From contig CAXXVS010000002.1 in the NCBI GenBank assembly GCA_963674755.2, forward strand, positions 2,048,001 to 2,112,000: a stretch of DNA of 64,000 nt, in the 5' to 3' direction. Below, one piece after another: positions 33,313-47,746 of this stretch. Made by a program: the position numbers and the translations under genes. Origin of the DNA: Desulfobacterales bacterium. Lineage in GTDB: Bacteria > Desulfobacterota > Desulfobacteria > Desulfobacterales > UBA5852. Within the stretch, counting starts at the first letter, position 1, and the number at the start of each line of letters is the position of its first letter. The notes beneath the pieces were generated by a model that ran no database searches, had not been told where the DNA came from, and saw nothing but the letters and a program-made list of their open reading frames with translations.

Positions 33313-34069
33313 CTCCGGTATCCTTATCCAATCAGGTGAACTCTATGACCATACCAGAACTTTCGGAAAATACAACTCATTCGCGTCCGAAGCGCCGACC
33401 GGTATTTTCATCCCTCTTAAATCCTCTGGCAGGCGCCGCCCTCATATCGCACTGATTGTTTTCCTGATTTTGGCTTAAGTGGGACAAGTAGAACTAAACC
33501 GCGACAATGGGGTGTGTCAAGGGCACCGGCACCTCCGCCGGTTGCCCGAAAACATGCGACGAAGGGTGCGTTTGGTTTGTGGGAAGCCGATCCTGGATTA
33601 CAAGCTTGCATCTGGCAGGGTGTTGATTGGAAAAACACCACTGCCTTGATTGGGTACCTGCCCGCTGTTCAGCAGGTGATTTCCTCTGCTCTGTGAGCCT
33701 GAATGGCAGGGTCGGCAGCTTTGGGGCTGCCACCCTTATCACCTCGCGACTGGATGTAATAAACCCTCCACGGATCTCCCCGGCTCGGAATCCTTGGGGG
33801 TGTCCCCTCTTCCGTTTCATCCCCCTTGCTTTCGGAGTTGGCTGGTGGTATCAGACGCTGCTTTATGCATCGATATCCCTTAATGTTTTCAGAAAGATAG
33901 AATGATGTGTTATGCAATATGGTGTTGGTGTCGAGGTATGTTTATAGCCGCCCGGCTGGGCTTGCTGAAGGGGGCAGGGGAGAGAAGATAGATTATTCGT
34001 ATTCTCCCGCCCTCACCACAGAGGGGTGGGAGGGGGATGGACATTAATATGAAGGAAAGTGCATCTGAT

Positions 34070-34453
34070 ATGGGAACCATCAAAACGACATACGAGCTTG
34101 ATAAGGGTCTGACTGTCATCACAGCAACGGGTAGGATGACTGCACAGGACTTCGATGAATGGAGGCAGAATTACTATTCTGACAAAGTTACAGCGAACAT
34201 CCTTTGGAACATCGTTGATGCCGACCTATCAGAAATTGAGTCCGAAGATGTTGCTACACATGCCCAACGTATTAGTGCCGATGCGAATGTACGTAAAGGC
34301 GGCAGATCTGCCATCGTTGTTGGTGGAAACACACTGGCATTAGGTTTAAGCAGGATGCGTGGAATTTATGGTGAGCTTGCGGATTCGCCCATTGCGGTAG
34401 AAATATTCACCAACATGGACGAAGCCAGAGAATGGCTTGGTGTAAAGGAATGA
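34070..34453 (+). CDS. STAS/SEC14 (SpoIIAA-like) domain protein
   Basis: ~125 aa; RSAIVV, FTNMDEAREWL C-terminus; start may be 34037. Confidence 0.65.
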   Translation: MGTIKTTYELDKGLTVITATGRMTAQDFDEWRQNYYSDKVTANILWNIVDADLSEIESEDVATHAQRISADANVRKGGRSAIVVGGNTLALGLSRMRGIYGELADSPIAVEIFTNMDEAREWLGVKE

Positions 34454-34824
34454 TGGTATTGGATATCAAGATTGACAACGAAAAGAAGATCATCCAGCGA
34501 ACCGTAACCGGTGATCTCTATACCGGGCGCTCACTCAAACTGGTCCGTGAACTTGCGATGTCTGTCAATACTCACAAGGGTTACAATGTCCTGATGGATA
34601 TGCGAGAGACAGAAACCAAGCCCGACATGCTCGACCTGATGCAGATCGCATCGGCTTGCACGAAGCTTCGGTCTAATTTCGATAGCAAGATTGCCTTTCT
34701 TATCCCAGATACCGAAGAGCGCATCCGATTCGCCCAGCTTTTCAAAGCCTGTATGGGAGCCCAAGGCTTTGAGTTCCGGCAGTTTTTCGATCGGGAAGCA
34801 GCTCTGGAATGGCTCGGAGTTTGA
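34450..34824 (+). CDS. STAS/SEC14 (SpoIIAA-like) domain protein
   Basis: NVLMDMRET, KIAFL, FFDREAALEWL; ATGA overlap with the previous gene. Confidence 0.7.
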   Translation: MMVLDIKIDNEKKIIQRTVTGDLYTGRSLKLVRELAMSVNTHKGYNVLMDMRETETKPDMLDLMQIASACTKLRSNFDSKIAFLIPDTEERIRFAQLFKACMGAQGFEFRQFFDREAALEWLGV

Positions 34825-34969
34825 GCCATCGTTCCCAGCCCGATACCGGCAATTACGGTTGACACGCTCCCTAAAAACATAGTAGCGATTTCAGTCAATT
34901 ACATTGGAAACGGATCGAATAAACAAGTCCGCCCGTCGCTCCGGCAATCATTAGTACTTGGAGACACTC

Positions 34970-35338
34970 ATGCCTGACAGGATTAAGCTCTATCATATAA
35001 GGGACTTCATCAGAATGACAGAATCCGGTGAGCTTGATCGTGACAGGTCGATTAGACTTGTTCGTGAACTTGCGACCTCAGCTGACTTCCATAAAGATCA
35101 CAATGTCATGCTGGACTTGAGAGAGACTCATGGACAAGCAAGTATGAGCGATCTAATTGAGATCTCAACTGAGTTTGCATCCTACCACAAAGTCTTCAGA
35201 AACAAGATTGCCGTGCTCATTCCAAACACCGAAGAACGGCTTCAACTCGCCAACCGATTTAAAACGTGCATGGATATGCAGGGCTTCCTATTCGAACAGT
35301 TTACCGACTTTGAAGAGGCAATAGAGTGGCTCTCATAG
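34970..35338 (+). CDS. STAS/SEC14 (SpoIIAA-like) domain protein, paralog of 34450
   Basis: NVMLDLRET, KIAVL, FTDFEEAIEWL; GGAG RBS. Confidence 0.7.
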   Translation: MPDRIKLYHIRDFIRMTESGELDRDRSIRLVRELATSADFHKDHNVMLDLRETHGQASMSDLIEISTEFASYHKVFRNKIAVLIPNTEERLQLANRFKTCMDMQGFLFEQFTDFEEAIEWLS

Positions 35339-35515
35339 GTTCCTTGCCATAGCAAGAGCACAGTCAGGACCGCATTCATCAATCCAGCTAAGGATCATAC
35401 CTTTTATTGTCTTGTACTCGACGGTCCCCGGCACCAAGGTGCCGGAGGGATCAATCAGTGTCAGCGCTTTGGTGATCGTTTCGACTTCGGTTTCTCGTTC
35501 CAGTTTCTTAGCCAA
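35333..35515 (-). CDS. Small DPxG/PGT-family protein, copy A (C-terminally truncated)
   Basis: IDPSGTLVPGTVEYKTIKGMILSW; GAGGGG + TTG start; DNA closely similar to copy D until 35339. Confidence 0.6.
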   Translation of the reverse strand: MAKKLERETEVETITKALTLIDPSGTLVPGTVEYKTIKGMILSWIDECGPDCALAMARNL

Positions 35516-35718
35516 GAGTGCCCCTCGATATTGAGAAGGTGCCGACTGTCGTGAGACATTCGCAGCACCTCGTCCGGTTCCATTTCCGCCATCCAAGATA
35601 GGATCATTTCCGTAACCCAATTGTGCTCGTGCGTACCTGGCATCAACACGCCCTTCGGGTCGATGATTGCCAGAGCGTTCGAGAGCGTCTGGTATCTGAC
35701 ATTGGTGGGTTTTGCCAT
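35461..35718 (-). CDS. Small DPxG/PGT-family protein, copy B (divergent; start uncertain)
   Basis: IIDPKGVLMPGTHEHNWVTEMILSW...VLRMS. Confidence 0.6.
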   Translation of the reverse strand: MAKPTNVRYQTLSNALAIIDPKGVLMPGTHEHNWVTEMILSWMAEMEPDEVLRMSHDSRHLLNIEGHSWLRNWNEKPKSKRSPKR

Positions 35719-35913
35719 TAGCGACTTTCCCATTGTTGGCAACCACGGTCTGAAATTGGAATTCGGAATTGGCAATCTATCTTGAGCCATAACGATGGCA
35801 GGATCGCTAATCAGGTTGGGTGAAGATGACCCTTAGCACAATGATAGGTTTAAGTTCTACTCAAAAAATGATCTTATCCATAGCTGGTTAAATGGACTGG
35901 CAAGGCAAACGCA

Positions 35914-35945
35914 GGTGGGATTGATACCGGGGGCGGAACGCCCCC
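35914..35945. repeat. Conserved GC hairpin element, copy 1
   Basis: GGTGGGATTGATACCGGGGGCGGAACGCCCCC; 31/32 identical to 38597-38628. Confidence 0.85.
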
Positions 35946-35966
35946 ATGGAAGCATGATTCGGCGAT

Positions 35967-36167
35967 CTATCTCACAGCACCTTCCACCCACACCTTCAGG
36001 TGCTTGGCGCTGTACCGAGCCATCTCAAGCACCTCGTCCCGGCTGTGCCGCCTCAACCAGATATAGATCATCTCGCTGATCCGATCGTACTGGCGAGTGC
36101 CCGGTATGAGCATCCCTTCGGGATCGATTAGCTTCAGGGCTTCTTTTATGGTGCCATCGGGGTCCAT
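35967..36167 (-). CDS. Small DPxG/PGT-family protein, copy C (+1 frameshift near the C-terminus)
   Basis: MDPDGTIKEALKLIDPEGMLIPGTRQY; close paralog of copy E. Confidence 0.7.
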   Translation of the reverse strand: MDPDGTIKEALKLIDPEGMLIPGTRQYDRISEMIYIWLRRHSRDEVLEMARYSAKHLKVWVEGAVR

Positions 36168-36224
36168 GCCACATTCTAAAACAAAAAGGGGAGGTGCCAC
36201 CAAAGCAGCAGTCGGATCCGCTAA
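36168..36224 (-). promoter_or_regulatory. Conserved upstream element / putative sigma70 promoter for leaderless mRNA (copy C)
   Basis: GTGGCA-N16-TAGAAT-N5-ATG with an upstream CGGATCCG palindrome; near-identical to 39295-39352. Confidence 0.55.
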
Positions 36225-36413
36225 CAATAGTTGCCTAAAACAATGGAGCGGCGCCATAGAGGAGTGTAATACTCTGGTGGGTATTTACCTTCCGGGACTT
36301 CGTTGAAGCTTCTTAGAATTGATTTTACTTTGGTGATCATGGCTTACCCCTGTTTTCTTTTTAGGGGTTATCAACACCATAAGGATCACTGCATTCCGAG
36401 CCGCACAATTATT

Positions 36414-36713
36414 TCAAGATTTCTTCCGCTTCTCCCGCCGCCATTCCCATGGCGGCGTAGGATCCTTATTAGCCCATAACCCGATACCAGCCTTCCTGGC
36501 TACCTCCTCAGCATCGGCATAATCCTGCCGCTTCGAGTACCGCTTATAATGCCACGCAAACCCAGCCTTCAGGATCTCCAAATTCAGCTCCTTGCCGCTT
36601 TCAAGATAAACCCTATCCACGGTCCGACCGTACCGGTCGATATCCACCTCCCGGTAATGGATGGTCTTGCCAAAGCACTGATCTGAAACAAACTGCTTAG
36701 CTTTCTTCCCGTA
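36414..36713 (-). pseudogene. Thermonuclease (SNase-like) C-terminal fragment
   Basis: YGKKAKQF..CFGK...DIDRYGR...LNLEILKAGFAW...ARKAGIGLW...PPWEWR; the DGDT/GIDAPE N-terminal half is missing. Confidence 0.8.
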
Positions 36714-36798
36714 ACCCGCCGTAAGGGATCTTGAGCCGGATGGCTACGTCAAGGGCGGCTTGTTCGGCGCCGGAGGATATGATCTTGGTGATGGTCAT
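36697..36798 (-). pseudogene. N-terminal fragment of a cpYpsA/'putative molybdenum carrier' SLOG-family protein
   Basis: MTITKIISSGAEQAALDVAIRLKIPYGG resembles the family start KIISGGQTGAD.AALD.A...GIP.GGW; it ends at the junction with the nuclease fragment. Confidence 0.6.
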
Positions 36799-36802
36799 AC
36801 GA

Positions 36803-37465
36803 CTAATTGTCAGGCATATCATGCATTGTAAGGGATTCCACTACTGACTCGAATGCTGGGCGGTTACTTTCAAATTTTTCACTCACAGAAAAAAGTATCA
36901 CTGCCGTTTGACAAAAATTCGTTTTGTGGCATGGGCAAATAAACCAGTCTAAACCAGCTGTTACGTCATTTAAGGAATGCTCCATATCGACCTCAATCTC
37001 GTACAGCGCTTCAGGTTTATACGATCTGGCATTAGCAATATAATTGCGGTGCGTTGTTGAAAGACTTTCAACATTGACCTGGCTCTCAAATCGCGAGACC
37101 TTGGTGTCTGTTTCGATCTTTTCTTTCATCATTGGCAGGATCTCACGAATTTTTCTTTCCGGCGTATCAAGCAAGTCCTGAAAGCTGTGTCTTCTTTTAT
37201 CGTTTGCAATGGTAATTATTCCTCCCGAGCTTTTATTGATCATTACCAACGTCACCATTTTTTTGAAGGACTGAGGAATCGTTTTCTCAATGTCCTTTGG
37301 GAATTTTTCGTAAACATCCCAACCTTGGGGGATGTCAACGCTGTACTGATATTTGAAATTGGTAGCCTTGTCGGGGAGAATAATCGGGGGAGGAAAAGTT
37401 GCACAACCAACGAGTCCAACTACCGCAGCCATAATAAGCAGATTACTCCAGGTCAGGCGTTGCAT
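36803..37465 (-). CDS. Hypothetical lipoprotein
   Basis: GGAGGA RBS; LVGC lipobox; AT-rich codon usage. Confidence 0.7.
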   Translation of the reverse strand: MQRLTWSNLLIMAAVVGLVGCATFPPPIILPDKATNFKYQYSVDIPQGWDVYEKFPKDIEKTIPQSFKKMVTLVMINKSSGGIITIANDKRRHSFQDLLDTPERKIREILPMMKEKIETDTKVSRFESQVNVESLSTTHRNYIANARSYKPEALYEIEVDMEHSLNDVTAGLDWFICPCHKTNFCQTAVILFSVSEKFESNRPAFESVVESLTMHDMPDN

Positions 37466-37506
37466 ACTGTATATCCTCCATTTATTTGGTATTCGGATAG
37501 GCGTCA

Positions 37507-37971
37507 CTATCCCGCGACGCTTAGTTCATATCCAAAGGTTACTTTGTCAAATCCTTCATCCGAATGATACTCGATGCGAAAAGGCATTCGCTTCTGGAGA
37601 TCGCCGAATACCGTATGGGGGCGAAAACTTACATTATCAACTATCCGATCCACTCTGCCTACAAGCATAAAGAACTTTGAAGGTCCATCCATAAGCCTGT
37701 AAAAGCTTATGTTCCCGTTGGAGGCATCAACAAAGCCCTCGATAACATAGTCTCCTTCAGCCACTCCCTTTTTTATGATAAAATCGAAAACCATGTGGGG
37801 GGTTGTGAGAACACACTGTTTGCCTTCACCAAAGGCTGGATAGTAGCCAGAATGATAATCACACCATCCCTCTGAAGGGTATTCTATCTCTTGCCCAACA
37901 TACTTCTTACCGCAAGAAACAAGAACAAGAGCACAAAGAACGAGAATCACTGCTACCGAAATTCGCCTCAT
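37507..37971 (-). CDS. Hypothetical lipoprotein
   Basis: GAGAGGG RBS; MRR + hydrophobic core + LVSC lipobox. Confidence 0.7.
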   Translation of the reverse strand: MRRISVAVILVLCALVLVSCGKKYVGQEIEYPSEGWCDYHSGYYPAFGEGKQCVLTTPHMVFDFIIKKGVAEGDYVIEGFVDASNGNISFYRLMDGPSKFFMLVGRVDRIVDNVSFRPHTVFGDLQKRMPFRIEYHSDEGFDKVTFGYELSVAG

Positions 37972-38001
37972 GTCATTCCCCTCTCATATTGAGTTCCAAG
38001 T

Positions 38002-38547
38002 TTATCTCGTCAGGTACTCCGTATCCCCTTTCGCCCAGCCCAGATATAGTACCAGACCATCAAAGGGCTGGGCGGGGTATATCATGTTCATCTCAGTCTC
38101 TATTCCAAACAGTGCTGCAAATTTGCTGTACTGGTCGAACCACATGTTCTGCGGACTGAACGAATGCACCAGCATGAGTGCTATCCCCGCTTGAAACTGC
38201 CGAGCTAAAAGCTTAGCGGACACAGTCCGGTGTAGCAGCTGGTACGGGATTTCCATGACGGCATCCACAGGCAGGTTAAGCTCCGAACACAGGAACTCCA
38301 ACCGCTTCACCTTTCCGGCAGAGGGGTTCTGGTACCATTCCGATACAGGCTTATCGAACGGTTCGTCCACCTTGCCTTCCACGGCAATGGTGACAAGCTG
38401 ATCGGCTGACTTAGCCAGGACGAATATGTCATTCTGAGAGGCGGCTCTGCCGCCGGGGAGGTCCACCTTGTGCTCGGGGATAATCAGGAGGGGGGCGATG
38501 TGCTTGACCTGATTAGCAAACGAATAGTAGATCCTGAACTGGACCAC
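38002..38547 (-). pseudogene. DUF6946-like (PD-(D/E)xK nuclease-like) protein, apparently lacking its N-terminus
   Basis: PEHKVDLPGG..SQNDIFVL...AVEGKVDEPF; YQLLHRT; MLVHSFS; YLGW. No RBS, and a + strand terminator lies just upstream. Confidence 0.55.
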
Positions 38548-38550
38548 ATC

Positions 38551-38581
38551 GGCAGAGCCTCTTTGAGGCTCTGCCTTTTTT
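38551..38581 (+). terminator. Intrinsic terminator
   Basis: Perfect 11-bp stem GGCAGAGCCTC-TTT-GAGGCTCTGCC followed by T6. Confidence 0.8.
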
Positions 38582-38596
38582 GTGCCTTGAGTATTG

Positions 38597-38628
38597 GGTG
38601 GGATTAATACCGGGGGCGGAACGCCCCC
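38597..38628. repeat. Conserved GC hairpin element, copy 2
   Basis: GGTGGGATTAATACCGGGGGCGGAACGCCCCC. Confidence 0.85.
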
Positions 38629-38670
38629 GTGGGGGTGGTACGCCGGGTTGACGGCTGCCTCAACGACACT

Positions 38671-38877
38671 TCACTTCAACCATGTGTCCAAGTGCTTTGC
38701 GCCCTTCCTTGCCATATCAAGAGCGTAATCAGGACAGCCTTCATCAATCCAGCCAAGGATCATATCTTTTATCGTATTGTATTCGACGGTCCCCGGCACC
38801 AAGATTCCGGAAGGATCAATCAGTGCCATTGCTTTAGATACGGTTTCGTCATCTTGATCGGTTCGTTCTGGTTGCAT
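38671..38877 (-). CDS. Small DPxG/PGT-family protein, copy D
   Basis: GGGAGG RBS; LIDPSGILVPGTVEYNTIKDMILGW...ALDMARKGAKHLDTWLK. Confidence 0.75.
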   Translation of the reverse strand: MQPERTDQDDETVSKAMALIDPSGILVPGTVEYNTIKDMILGWIDEGCPDYALDMARKGAKHLDTWLK

Positions 38878-39046
38878 TGCAATCCCTCCCTGGTGGCATA
38901 TTGAGCAGCCGTGTTTCTCAGGAGCAAGATCAGAAATTGGAACGCTGATGTGAATGGCTTTGTCAAAAAGGTTATAGCGGCACTAAAAAATGTCAAACGC
39001 AGCTGCCGGGGGAACTGGTATTGGGGAACCAGAAACGGGAGGAGTC

Positions 39047-39073
39047 GATACCGGGGGCGCAGAGCGCCCCCGG
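39047..39073. repeat. Conserved GC hairpin element, copy 3
   Basis: GATA-CCGGGGGCGC-AGA-GCGCCCCCGG (perfect 10-bp stem). Confidence 0.8.
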
Positions 39074-39099
39074 CTATGGGCGGGATTTCAGAGCCTATC

Positions 39100-39294
39100 T
39101 TACAGCACCTTCCACCAAACCTTCAGGTACTTAGCGCTGTATCGAGCCATCTCAAGGGTCTTTTCAGCACCGTGCTGCCGTAACCAGATTTCGAGCATTT
39201 CCCAGATCCTGCCGTATTGACGTGTACCGGGAATGAGCATCCCCTCGGGGTCGATGCGCTTGATAGCTTCGGATATTGTTTCATTCGGGTCCAT
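39100..39294 (-). CDS. Small DPxG/PGT-family protein, copy E
   Basis: MDPNETISEAIKRIDPEGMLIPGTRQYGRIWEMLEIW...LEMARYSAKYLKVWWKVL. Confidence 0.75.
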   Translation of the reverse strand: MDPNETISEAIKRIDPEGMLIPGTRQYGRIWEMLEIWLRQHGAEKTLEMARYSAKYLKVWWKVL

Positions 39295-39352
39295 GACATA
39301 TCATAAAACAAAAAAGGGGAGGTGCCACCGAATCAGCAGTCGGATCCGCTAA
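39295..39352 (-). promoter_or_regulatory. Conserved upstream element / putative sigma70 promoter for leaderless mRNA (copy E)
   Basis: GTGGCA-N17-TATGAT-N5-ATG with an upstream CGGATCCG palindrome. Confidence 0.55.
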
Positions 39353-39460
39353 TCCGAATCGAGACTAAGAAGCGGGCTTGACGTACCATCATTGGTACGG
39401 GTGCCATTCTGGGACTAAAAACCCTCTGGGGCTATATCACTGTAAGGGTTGCCCAATAGG

Positions 39461-39594
39461 GCGAGAACAGAGCGAGAATGAGGGAATGCCTATGGGCATC
39501 CTCCTTTTTTATGGGGAAAGTGGTGAGAACAGAATGAGAATAAGTCTTCCCAGAAGCAACTCAGGGGGTCAGGCTTTGTTGCCTAACCCCCTGA
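39461..39594. other. att-like region: two 19-bp direct repeats plus a hairpin abutting the tRNA 3' end
   Basis: GCGAGAACAGAGCGAGAAT (39461) and GTGAGAACAGAATGAGAAT (39523); inverted repeat 39561-39574/39581-39594 (13/14). Confidence 0.55.
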
Positions 39595-39601
39595 TTTTAT
39601 T

Positions 39602-39689
39602 TGGTGCCGGAGGGGAGAATCGAACTCCCACGAGCGCAAGGCTCACCAGATTTTGAGTCTGGCGCGTCTACCAATTTCACCACTCCGGC
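39602..39689 (-). tRNA. tRNA-Leu (CAA)
   Basis: GCCGGAGTGGTGAAATTGGTAGAC...CCAGA-CTCAAAA-TCTGG, long variable arm, GTTCGATTC T-loop, encoded CCA. Confidence 0.97.
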
Positions 39690-44869: not shown

Positions 44870-47731
44870 TTATTTGGCGACCACCGGCAGGGAACCGGAA
44901 ATTTCCACGGCAAACTCCTGCAGTTCGATATCGGGTGGCAGGTCACCGAATACGACCATGAAAGGGACTTCCTGTCCGGGGGCCACGTTGACGTTCGTGT
45001 TGTCCAAGCCCATACGATTGTTCAATTTCTGCTGAATGTCGGCCAGGGGCAGGCTGGCCAGCTCGTCGGTCGGAACGATATTCCCGCAATAGGCCTTGGC
45101 CGCACGCTGAAACTTGCGGCCGTTGGCATAAACGCGGCCGGTCACCCGTATGTAGCTGCGGGAGCTCTTGTAGTCGTTTTTCACGCGTCCTTGAATAATG
45201 TAAAGGCGGCCGACCTGCTGATTCTGAACCCATTCCCCTTTAAGGGAGCTCTCTACCGGCAGAATCGCTTGATTGGACGGGCTGCCGAGATATTGTCCGA
45301 TGAAGGGTATTCCGGAGAGATCCGGCATTTTGATTTCTGGCAGTTTAATACCTGTATACTTCGGCAGGAGATAACCCGCCCCTCCAAGCAGAACTAAAAT
45401 AAAGAGAAGTACCAGGCCTTTGCTCGATTTCTTCTTCCGCTTCATGGGCGGCGCTGGTTTGATTGGCTTCGTCTCCATTGGCGGTGCGGCCATGGTCTGG
45501 GTGTCGGCCGCCGCCATTTCATCCATGAGTTCCTGTGTCAGATCCCGGTCATGCGGACGGCCTGGTTGGCCGGCAGCCACGGCAATCGGTTCCGAAAGGG
45601 TGTCCGCCGAAATATCTTCGGCATCGAGATCAAGGTCGACCTCCTCCACGGCAAGGTCGTCATCCATGATCTCAAAATCGAGGTCGCCCTCAATATCCTT
45701 GGCATCTGCCTCCCCTCCGCCACTGCCCGTAAGGTCAAGACCGAGGTCCTCCGACTCGGAGGTATCGAACAACGCCGAAGCTTGGGCCGGTTCCTCATCC
45801 AACATGTCGAATTCGAGATCCAGATCGTCGCTTTCCTCGGTCGACGGCTGAAGTTCGAAGTCGAGATCCAGATCGTCCATATCGTCATCGGCAGCCGTAG
45901 GGGAATCGGTGGTATCTTCCACATCCAGCATCTTTTCAAGTTCGGAAAGATCCAGAGCGGCATCTGCGTCGGTGGTCTCTTCGTCTGTTTCCTCGGCCTC
46001 CTCTGCGGGCGACGCCACGCTGCCCATATCCAAATCGAGGTCGAGGTCGAGGTCTTCGGATGGTGAGGCTTCCTCGGCCGTATCTTCGCCGACCCCGTCC
46101 ATCTCCAGAATTTTCTCGATGTCATTCAGATCGAGTTCGCGCGTGGCGTCATCCATATCATCGTCGCCACCCTCATCCAGGCTGTCGAGATCGATGTCGA
46201 GCTCCAGGCTGTCGGAGGGCAGATCATCTCCCTCTCCGGAGCTATCTTCCATTCCTTCAAGCAGGGATTCCAGCTCATCGACTTCCAGCTCGCGGGTTTC
46301 TTCGGCAATATCCTCTGTCGATCGAGAGGCTTCCGGGCTATCCGCCAACGCGTCGTCCTCCAGGAAAAGATCGAGTTCATCGGCCCCGTCCTTTCCGGTG
46401 TCATCAAGATCCATCTCCAGCTTGAGTTCGGGCGCTTCGGCTTCCTCGACAGCATCGGCCGCCTTGTCGGGGCTTTCGTCAAGGGCTTGGCTCAAATCGG
46501 AAAAATCGAGTTCCGGCAGTGCCTCTTCATCGGAAGGCATCGCGGTAGCGTCATCCTCCTCCAAGGACAACGCCAGGTCGCCTAAATCATCCGGCTCACC
46601 CTGCTGCCCTTCCGGGGTAGCCTCTTCCAAATCAAGATCAAGTTCGAGTTCTTGATCCTCTTCGTCGGGCTCATCGTCTTCGTCGGGCTCATCGTCACTC
46701 GACGCAAAATCGGCTTCGAGCTCGGAGAAATCCAGCTCCTCGGTTTCCTCAAGCGGCACGTCCCCAGCGTCATCTTCATCGAAAATGCCGTCAAGTCCGG
46801 GGGCCAACTCGAAATCCAGATCCAAGTCATCACCGGCATCACCTGCGGCCGACCCTTCCTCAGCCTCCGGGGCATCACTGATTTCGGACACCCCGATTTC
46901 CTCGGTTTCTTCGAGAAGGGGCTCCCGGCCGTCGTCTTTCAAAAGATCTTCCAGGTTGGAATCCAGATCCAGATTGATTTCATCCGCAACGGGAGAGGCC
47001 TCCTCCTGCGCCCCGACCCCGGCCTCTGGCTCAATCCCGCCGATCGACTCTTCCACGGCAGCGATTTCATCACCCAGTCCGGTATCCTCCTCCAGGAGAT
47101 GCTCAAGATCTTCCAGATCGAGATCCAGCTCTTCAATGACGCTGTCTTCCTCCTCGATCGCTCCGATTCCGGCATCATCCGGTAGGCTTTCCCCGAAATC
47201 GAGCTCTTCGGAATCCACCGCCTCACGGCCCTGTTGCGCCCCGGGTGAGTCACCTTCGGCGTCGAGCATTTTTTCGAGATCAGCCAGATTGAGCTCTTCT
47301 GTCTTGAAATCCTCTTCGGGCGACGGGCGCGACGACGGGCTCTCGTCCTCGCTCAGCAACTGGTCCAGCTCATCGAGATTGATCTCATCGGTCACCAGGT
47401 CGTCATCTTCGGACAGCGCTTCCCCGATTTCTTCATCCGCAAAGAATTTGAGCTCCGGCGGCGCCGCTTCTGGGAGGTCTGTTTCTTGGGCGCCATCTTC
47501 CGCCAAACCCGCTGCAACCGCCCCCAAAACAGCACCTGTTGCTGCAAGACCTGCCGCTCCCGCCGCCGTGCCATCGTCGTCAGGCTCAAGGCGTCCCCTG
47601 GTCGAAGTCTCCGGAGGAAACGCCACCCAAATATTCTGACACAGGGAGCAGCGCACCTTTGAGCCGGTCCCTTTCAGTAACGTTTCATCCAAATTGAAAC
47701 TGGTACTGCATTTCTGGCAGGTAAGAATCAT
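44870..47731 (-). CDS. Zinc-ribbon + long acidic repeat region + TM + DUF3426-like domain (ZitP-like architecture)
   Basis: CQKC...KVRCSLC; ~700 aa D/E-rich region; KRKKK + TM; LYIIQGRVKN...PFMVVF C-terminal domain. Confidence 0.82.
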   Translation of the reverse strand: MILTCQKCSTSFNLDETLLKGTGSKVRCSLCQNIWVAFPPETSTRGRLEPDDDGTAAGAAGLAATGAVLGAVAAGLAEDGAQETDLPEAAPPELKFFADEEIGEALSEDDDLVTDEINLDELDQLLSEDESPSSRPSPEEDFKTEELNLADLEKMLDAEGDSPGAQQGREAVDSEELDFGESLPDDAGIGAIEEEDSVIEELDLDLEDLEHLLEEDTGLGDEIAAVEESIGGIEPEAGVGAQEEASPVADEINLDLDSNLEDLLKDDGREPLLEETEEIGVSEISDAPEAEEGSAAGDAGDDLDLDFELAPGLDGIFDEDDAGDVPLEETEELDFSELEADFASSDDEPDEDDEPDEEDQELELDLDLEEATPEGQQGEPDDLGDLALSLEEDDATAMPSDEEALPELDFSDLSQALDESPDKAADAVEEAEAPELKLEMDLDDTGKDGADELDLFLEDDALADSPEASRSTEDIAEETRELEVDELESLLEGMEDSSGEGDDLPSDSLELDIDLDSLDEGGDDDMDDATRELDLNDIEKILEMDGVGEDTAEEASPSEDLDLDLDLDMGSVASPAEEAEETDEETTDADAALDLSELEKMLDVEDTTDSPTAADDDMDDLDLDFELQPSTEESDDLDLEFDMLDEEPAQASALFDTSESEDLGLDLTGSGGGEADAKDIEGDLDFEIMDDDLAVEEVDLDLDAEDISADTLSEPIAVAAGQPGRPHDRDLTQELMDEMAAADTQTMAAPPMETKPIKPAPPMKRKKKSSKGLVLLFILVLLGGAGYLLPKYTGIKLPEIKMPDLSGIPFIGQYLGSPSNQAILPVESSLKGEWVQNQQVGRLYIIQGRVKNDYKSSRSYIRVTGRVYANGRKFQRAAKAYCGNIVPTDELASLPLADIQQKLNNRMGLDNTNVNVAPGQEVPFMVVFGDLPPDIELQEFAVEISGSLPVVAK

Positions 47732-47746
47732 GACACACCCCAACGG

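Follow-up and report, generated by a model that had tools for sequence, protein, structure and literature searches.

The window, a 64,000-nucleotide stretch of a Desulfobacterales bacterium genome (contig CAXXVS010000002.1, positions 2,048,001 to 2,112,000), carries beside a tRNA-Leu gene an array of five small minus-strand genes, here called A to E. These genes are real paralogs of an undescribed family of three-helix proteins of 60–85 amino acids (aa) that is under purifying selection, and their surroundings indicate that the window very probably holds an integrase-less, twice-accreted remnant of a family of tRNA-targeted integrative defence elements. Two subfamilies of the protein, alpha and delta, are coupled to one integrase clade. 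The protein family and its coupling to this large, unstudied integrase group are new, while the island type is familiar.

A family of small three-helix proteins

The first-pass annotation, made from the letters alone, had described five related open reading frames (ORFs), and all five are present where it had placed them:

39100..39294, minus strand: gene E, alpha subfamily, 64 aa, intact
38671..38877, minus strand: gene D, beta subfamily, 68 aa, intact, good ribosome-binding site (RBS)
35967..36167, minus strand: gene C, alpha subfamily; a one-base insertion alters the last four residues
35461..35718, minus strand: gene B, gamma subfamily, 85 aa, intact, overlapping A at its 3′ end
35333..35515, minus strand: gene A, beta subfamily, TTG start with RBS, 3′-truncated

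The motif T..A...IDP.G.L.PGT......M...W.......L.M, proposed at the same time, is indeed common to A–E; the core alignment contains 15 invariant positions, and pairwise tblastn among the five gives E-values from 1e-25 to 3e-6. In the hidden Markov model search that had been suggested as a check, A–E were matched at E 8e-35 to 1e-26 in the six-frame translation of the 6.7 Mb genome, with the next match at E 0.96 and nothing else intact. A sixth, broken copy lies 190 kb off among insertion sequence (IS) elements (C2:1890159-1890290 of this genome, G000); a tRNA-Arg accompanied by an integrase fragment is about 12 kb away. Four main subfamilies can be distinguished, namely alpha (C and E), beta (A and D, already grouped together in the annotation, which differ at 24/149 nt), gamma (B) and a divergent delta, which is joined to the family by hhalign at 99.6%; differences between paralogs fall in helix 3 and at the C-terminus, and the C-termini are subfamily-specific. 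The protein collection contains 138 relatives, which reduce to 64 representatives at 50% identity, including one spurious entry. Family genes are present in 10/12 same-genus genomes and in 0/48 other relatives, and wider profiles matched 13/401 genomes of the order and 13/401 of the class, in three genera; the family was found only in these three genera of one order, and the named matches are Desulfobacteraceae and Desulfobacterales bins and Desulfosarcina widdelii. In-frame gamma–beta fusions without a second helix 1 (loci L033:10015-10335 and L034, protein P0121) and gamma–beta or alpha–beta chimeras (L029, L077, L085) also occur.

Selection was estimated over 46 core codons as the ratio of nonsynonymous to synonymous substitution rates (dN/dS), with saturated pairs dropped. 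The ratio is 0.33 for A/D and 0.13 for C/E, which is purifying and not near 1; B against eight gamma orthologs gives 0.09–0.18, and the medians are 0.13 for gamma (78/120 pairs usable), 0.34 for beta (111/153) and 0.20 for alpha (5/6). It could be argued that this selection dates from mobile ancestors and that the window copies are decaying passengers, now silent debris. Damage of this kind is common: A ends about ten codons early, where it meets a STAS-like gene on the other strand; the final codons of C contain a single extra base, which is absent from the contig of a near-identical strain; the sixth copy is broken, the cargo genes are cut, and many family copies in relatives are broken. Against this, B, D and E are intact with a promoter or RBS, and B shows the low ratios given above, so that silent debris has only a small probability. 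The 3′ end of B and the TTG start of A share a 55-nt overlap.

The AlphaFold model of D consists of three helices (residues 7–20, 31–46 and 49–67) without strands, at a mean predicted local distance difference test score (pLDDT) of 85.6. The proteins are soluble, with isoelectric points from 4.4 to 9.2 and mostly not basic, and the maximum 19-residue hydropathy of A–E is 0.06–1.11, which bears out the earlier view that they are soluble, helical and unlike hydrophobic type I toxins. The suggested structure prediction and fold search yielded the three-helix fold and no family name: the VIA wide search matched only generic three-helix bundles (best Z 5.6, root-mean-square deviation 2.5–3.3, about 60 aligned), and Foldseek gave no E below 1. 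For the natural gamma–beta fusion P0121, only the first repeat folded well.

The annotation had recognised no family, and library searches agree, with no Pfam, PHROG, NCBIfam, PADLOC or fold match. A–E have no Pfam match, 58 members gave only chance-level matches in Pfam, NCBIfam and PHROGs yielded none, and 0/58 match PADLOC (library dated 2023). Among PDB sequences the best match (E 0.57) is the EF-hand of a myosin light chain; the EF-hand reading was dropped because the family loop has no glycine at position 6, a residue of the EF-hand consensus. Three delta proteins (P0244, P0258, P0264) are labelled YdhG/DUF1801 by a source, and 0/3 match that family in Pfam at E 1. A literature search, with most subscription papers and all supplements outside its scope, found no description of this protein family, and a full-text search for DUF6538 with integrase, supplements again outside its scope, found no paper.

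Two separately derived remnants beside tRNA-Leu

The placement of the array in a tRNA-Leu island was correct. The island, about 33580–39601, is inserted at the tRNA 3′ end and has a GC content of 49% against 58–59% in the flanks; in relative G010 the site is empty, tRNA-Leu being joined to pqiA in about 170 nt. No integrase is left: none of the genome's 17 PF00589 matches lies in the island, and no DUF6538 domain was found anywhere in the genome. The insertion site and the control elements of the array are:

39602..39689, minus strand: tRNA-Leu(CAA), island insertion site, called by ARAGORN; site empty in G010
39460..39540, minus strand: two short direct-repeat pairs (39522-39540 and 39460-39478), likely integrase arm-type sites
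39295..39352, minus strand: leader 5′ of E, shared with C; replaces the integrase tail seen in relatives
39052..39072, minus strand: GC hairpin after E (z −2.4)
38969..38996, minus strand: beta-type promoter, TTGACA-16-TAAnnT, spacer conserved; layout shared by the beta copies of at least nine relatives
38611..38629, minus strand: GC hairpin after D
38551..38580, plus strand: intrinsic terminator, opposite-facing, after D (z −5.4)
36168..36224, minus strand: second leader copy, 5′ of C
35928..35946, minus strand: GC hairpin after C
35834..35859, minus strand: gamma-type promoter region with a 6-14-6 inverted repeat, a possible operator

Repeat pairs of other sequence occupy the same place as the two direct-repeat pairs in relatives, and also both ends of an intact element in G010, and 5 or 6 of the 6 pairs of the gamma inverted repeat are formed in 10/14 gamma upstream regions.

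The order E-D and C-B-A had been read as a duplicated block bracketing the cargo, and this simple duplication is contradicted by the divergence of the copies. Synonymous sites are saturated between C and E (dS 1.59), while dS is 0.38 between A and D; C is nearer to a relative's alpha (dS 0.29), and in both the protein and the DNA tree the members of neither pair group as sisters, at modest support. E-D and C-B-A are separately derived remnants of a recurring unit. From the layouts in relatives, this unit would run integrase, alpha (or delta), GC hairpin, promoter, gamma, beta and terminator, often facing a two-peptide operon, and the array would be the integrase-proximal end of a genus-level element family, left at tRNA-Leu at least twice after integrase deletion. 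Both blocks are found at the same tRNA in relative G004. In a second sample, a contig is 99% identical over 34933–38507 and then continues with 1,656 other letters exactly at the cut in the DUF6946 gene, and another contig leaves the window sequence at 39437; therefore, the E-D stretch differs between strains, a comparison that rests on contig junctions only, low E-D cover not being used.

An intact element of this kind is present in G010. It measures 28 kb (C6 about 41170–69150, L204:4572 to L031:12721), with an integrase at tRNA-Met (motifs TGCR/HSFRH), a 23-bp exact repeat of the tRNA end 28 kb away and the same arm-type repeat at both ends. It holds three family genes, namely a delta, a broken alpha and a beta, together with two peptide genes, and its cargo includes type I restriction-modification, HNH-HIT, Abi_alpha, DUF4145, TIR, SRAP, cpYpsA SLOG-DUF6794, SNase and STAS-like genes; no family is assigned to about half of its ORFs, among them one of 594 aa next to the attachment (att) repeat. 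The cargo of the window matches this element in its SLOG, SNase and STAS-like genes:

38002..38507, minus strand: DUF6946 gene, 5′ part missing (Pfam E 6e-61, profile 50-213 of 214)
37507..37971, minus strand: 154-aa lipoprotein-like ORF, no family, cargo
36803..37465, minus strand: 220-aa lipoprotein-like ORF, no family, cargo; also beside DUF6946 in L025
36700..36798, minus strand: cpYpsA SLOG remnant, first 36 codons, 81% identical to the G010 element's gene
36414..36713, minus strand: SNase-family nuclease remnant, C-terminal part (Pfam), 79% identical to residues 74-171 of the G010 element's gene
34037..35338, plus strand: three SpoIIAA/STAS-like cargo genes (weak Pfam), 38–79% identical to G010 element genes

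The SNase remnant is in one frame in the window, and an extra base breaks the frame in the sister strain. L025 contains a full-length DUF6946 homolog, and there DUF6946 is again found together with the 220-aa lipoprotein, at a distance of 8 kb from a gamma–beta pair. In the available portions of two papers, DUF6946 is given as a putative restriction-endonuclease fold (PMC10584680) and is listed once as a toxin-antitoxin partner (PMC12654330), the latter with no bearing on the array genes.

Decayed tRNA islands of similar build are known. The available text of PMC5357655 describes site-specific accretion of remnants of integrative and conjugative or mobilizable elements, and that of 10.1101/2020.12.28.424599 describes tRNA-seeded islands built from tycheposon remnants. 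As far as these texts go, the window resembles such islands in its insertion at a tRNA 3′ end, low GC, successive arrivals and the empty site in a relative, and tyrosine integrases and fragmented integrases are likewise shared; it differs in having no partial tRNA between or after the remnants, in that no gene for a relaxase, for conjugation or for replication could be recognised in the intact relative, and in that the persisting part is a multi-copy small-gene module. Specifically, Pfam recognised no relaxase or conjugation gene among the scanned G010 element ORFs of ≥90 aa, about half of which are familyless.

The first-pass annotation had instead interpreted the array as a self-contained expression cassette of about 300 bp, comparable to the promoter–stem-loop (PeSL) units of T4-type phages, that multiplies by recombination between its regulatory ends. 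Part of this stands, as the beta and gamma genes have conserved promoters of their own behind a GC hairpin, the hairpin and the conserved promoter recur before beta and gamma in homologs, and the chimeric or fused genes (L029, L077, L085, L033, P0121) show that paralogs recombine; the same GC hairpin does lie 3′ of C, D and E, and the leader of C and E is kept better than their coding DNA (43/47 vs 133/180 nt identical). A multiplying unit defined by the leader does not stand, because the leader is private to this genome, being found in none of the other mapped loci and giving 0/12 real matches in same-genus genomes; moreover, the hairpin is tied to one gene family and not spread among unrelated ORFs, and the copies are old, travelling with integrase stumps and shared cargo. 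As the available text of PMC2839356 describes PeSLs, the array is like them in that promoter and stem-loop recur in a hypervariable region with recombination between repeats; PeSLs flank unrelated ORFs of T4-type phages, whereas in the array, which is part of a bacterial island, the motifs keep to a single family and coding sequence forms the strongest repeat. The array fails the PeSL definition, since three of the four genome-wide hairpin matches at the same stringency lie in it and the leader occurs only twice. Multiplication as a cassette is thus improbable.

The leader by E contains weak sigma70-like −35/−10 hexamers (39328-39300) that end 5 nt before the ATG, and it could be a leaderless promoter that took the place of the integrase. 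It has no Rfam match and no stable fold, and 17 viral 16-mer matches to it were rejected as chance (19–27/47 identical). A 9-nt stretch of the leader (39320-39328 and 36192-36200) is complementary to the RBS region of the hydrophobic peptide gene (discussed below) elsewhere in the genome, which may be chance or may point to an antisense acting in trans.

Integrase coupling and candidate functions

While the annotation was right about a real, selected family in a tRNA-Leu island, it had overlooked the missing piece, the integrase, which in relatives is found, whole or as a stump, at tRNA 3′ ends with the C/E-type gene behind it. In L085 the ATG of alpha and the stop of a DUF6538-type tyrosine integrase overlap; L031 has an intact integrase, then, 8 nt further on, delta and behind it a broken alpha. 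Further loci show stages of loss: in L027 the integrase is internally deleted (first 44 codons joined to the last 11) directly 5′ of a broken alpha, in L028 and L081 only its last 11 codons precede alpha, and in L022 and L074 only the last 2–4. Altogether, an integrase or its remnant precedes 7/10 alpha-type starts examined; 4/10 of the closest integrase proteins end in a tail readable as an alpha start in another frame, and this tail is in none of the next 50 among the matches listed. Of the same-genus clusters mapped, 7/15 lie within 3.5 kb of tRNA-Leu, -Phe or -Met, compared with 4.7% of the genome, a count in which kin are not independent, one contig-end cluster is unmapped and four have short flanks.

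Tentatively, the protein may be a small three-helix protein-binding regulator of the element. Alpha and delta would be made by translational coupling with the integrase and would tune integration or excision, while beta and gamma, with their own promoters, would be diverged paralogs acting in trans after integrase loss, which would explain continued selection. This role is ranked first because the alpha start overlaps the integrase stop, so that the two would be made in step, and because arm-binding tyrosine integrases are those associated with excisionases (available part of PMC8138268). The family is like excisionases in being a small gene adjoining an integrase, in an element with arm-type repeats; it is unlike them in having no profile match (0/58 members match any excisionase (Xis) Pfam family at E 0.1), an all-helical predicted bundle without strands, several paralogs per element and mostly non-basic proteins. 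Known Xis proteins have a winged helix. If the family does control recombination, it would represent a new fold in tyrosine-integrase control, and the intact 28-kb G010 element with its att sites would allow a direct test of the gene behind the integrase.

Several observations weigh against this account. No attR was found for the window island, where the longest match to the tRNA 3′ end is a 12-nt stretch within gene A. An integrase tail is lacking at E, C and L077, four of the loci linked to an integrase have a broken alpha, and the G010 element also has a winged-helix ORF, a possible excisionase. A family gene lies ≤1.5 kb downstream in 0/15 other genomes with this integrase family, one of them of the same genus, and therefore the family is not an obligatory integrase partner. 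In addition, most copies under purifying selection sit in integrase-free loci, and most delta copies of genus g159 are solitary, without an integrase in the vicinity.

Close behind the regulator, because selected and separately promoted copies persist without integrase, comes the possibility, itself doubtful, that the protein shares this origin and serves the host as a defence or stress accessory binding a host or phage protein; the paralogs would then cover different targets, and the integrase link would be a by-product of position. The purifying selection and own promoters of integrase-free copies, the largely defence-related cargo of the intact element, the subfamily-specific C-termini and the stand-alone delta, conserved in g159 as dozens of 63–93% identical homologs, all favour such a role, which would make the family a candidate defence accessory in sulfate-reducing sediment bacteria. 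On the other hand, the PADLOC search was negative, no relative was found in the viral contigs, phage and plasmid records searched, and the presence of two subfamilies in the slot directly behind the integrase is left unexplained.

A more specific form of the regulator can be considered, in which the family would be a new non-helix-turn-helix directionality factor or inhibitor for DUF6538-type integrases, arisen from the integrase's own helical hairpin, binding the integrase as a mimic and kept by the host in tRNA arrays as a record controlling re-entry or excision. Homology to this internal hairpin was not accepted, since hhalign gives 5.6–7.4% over 18–19 columns, which is not significant, although the alignment (helix 1–loop–helix 2) is the best of the sliding windows and above 60/60 column shuffles. 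The ESM Atlas returned nothing for D and, for P0105, weak integrase-domain neighbours (0.91–0.93, 68–100 shared features) with recognition below threshold. As neither likeness is significant, they support only this mimic proposal, which is rather improbable.

Lastly, the protein could be an antitoxin or immunity protein for a convergent hydrophobic peptide of 28–30 aa, stabilising the island in the manner of a toxin–antitoxin system. The terminator after D ends a convergent two-peptide operon in relatives, and this operon or its second gene faces beta in eight loci with a common terminator, the second peptide having a hydrophobic N-half; the arrangement is like that of TxpA/RatA-type type I toxin–antitoxin loci with convergent genes. 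Pairing is not obligate, however: the operon is missing in the window, which has the family without the peptides, and it occurs with no family gene nearby elsewhere in this genome (C3:224858-225100) and in 9/9 further loci fetched for it. The first peptide is present in 125/401 genomes of the order, in up to 11 copies, vs 13/401 for the family. The low hydropathy of the window proteins is also unlike that of type I toxins. An antitoxin role carries little probability.

The operon encodes an acidic 44-aa peptide containing one His and two invariant Cys, followed by the 28–30 aa peptide, usually with two Cys, and ends in a conserved 3′ region of about 140 nt in which the 5′ arm of the terminator occurs a second time (G000 C3:224858-225100, i.e., L136, and L022, L025, L027, L031, L075, L078 and L154–L162). 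It has no Pfam, NCBIfam or Rfam match; two unannotated peptides are thereby added, one of them in about a third of the sampled genomes of the order.

Further observations

The beta genes contain an 8-bp inverted repeat over their conserved loop codons (gene A: window 35430-35449). In degenerate copies (L027, L078, L081) the loop codons are changed and a near-perfect inverted repeat is kept. As the repeat covers the G-x-L-x-P codons and includes the 12-nt match to the tRNA-Leu 3′ end, it was considered as an att site; third-position pairing is 66/141 against 54 in shuffled sequences, and the att reading was not accepted because kinship and GC-rich codons can explain this pairing.

A recurring ORF of about 64 aa with a hydrophobic stretch occupies one and the same slot in three relatives, between the broken alpha and the hairpin in L027 and L081 and after tRNA-Leu in L035. 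In L068 and L069 (G377), tandem repeats combine delta copies with a DUF4136 gene; tRNA-Met and an integrase of another kind lie beside them. The IS-rich island around the sixth, broken copy (G000 C2 about 1.88–1.90 Mb) contains three c-di-GMP-I-GGC riboswitches within 15 kb (L001 4362-4436, 10053-10127 and 18715-18789), one of them directly beside that copy, together with a short ORF of about 47 aa (L001 10631-10771, plus strand) which presumably resembles seed-maturation or late embryogenesis abundant (LEA)-type hydrophilins. Outside the island, at 44870-47743 on the minus strand of the window, a very acidic 957-aa zinc-ribbon/DUF3426 protein is encoded just upstream of tRNA-Met and is conserved in relatives.

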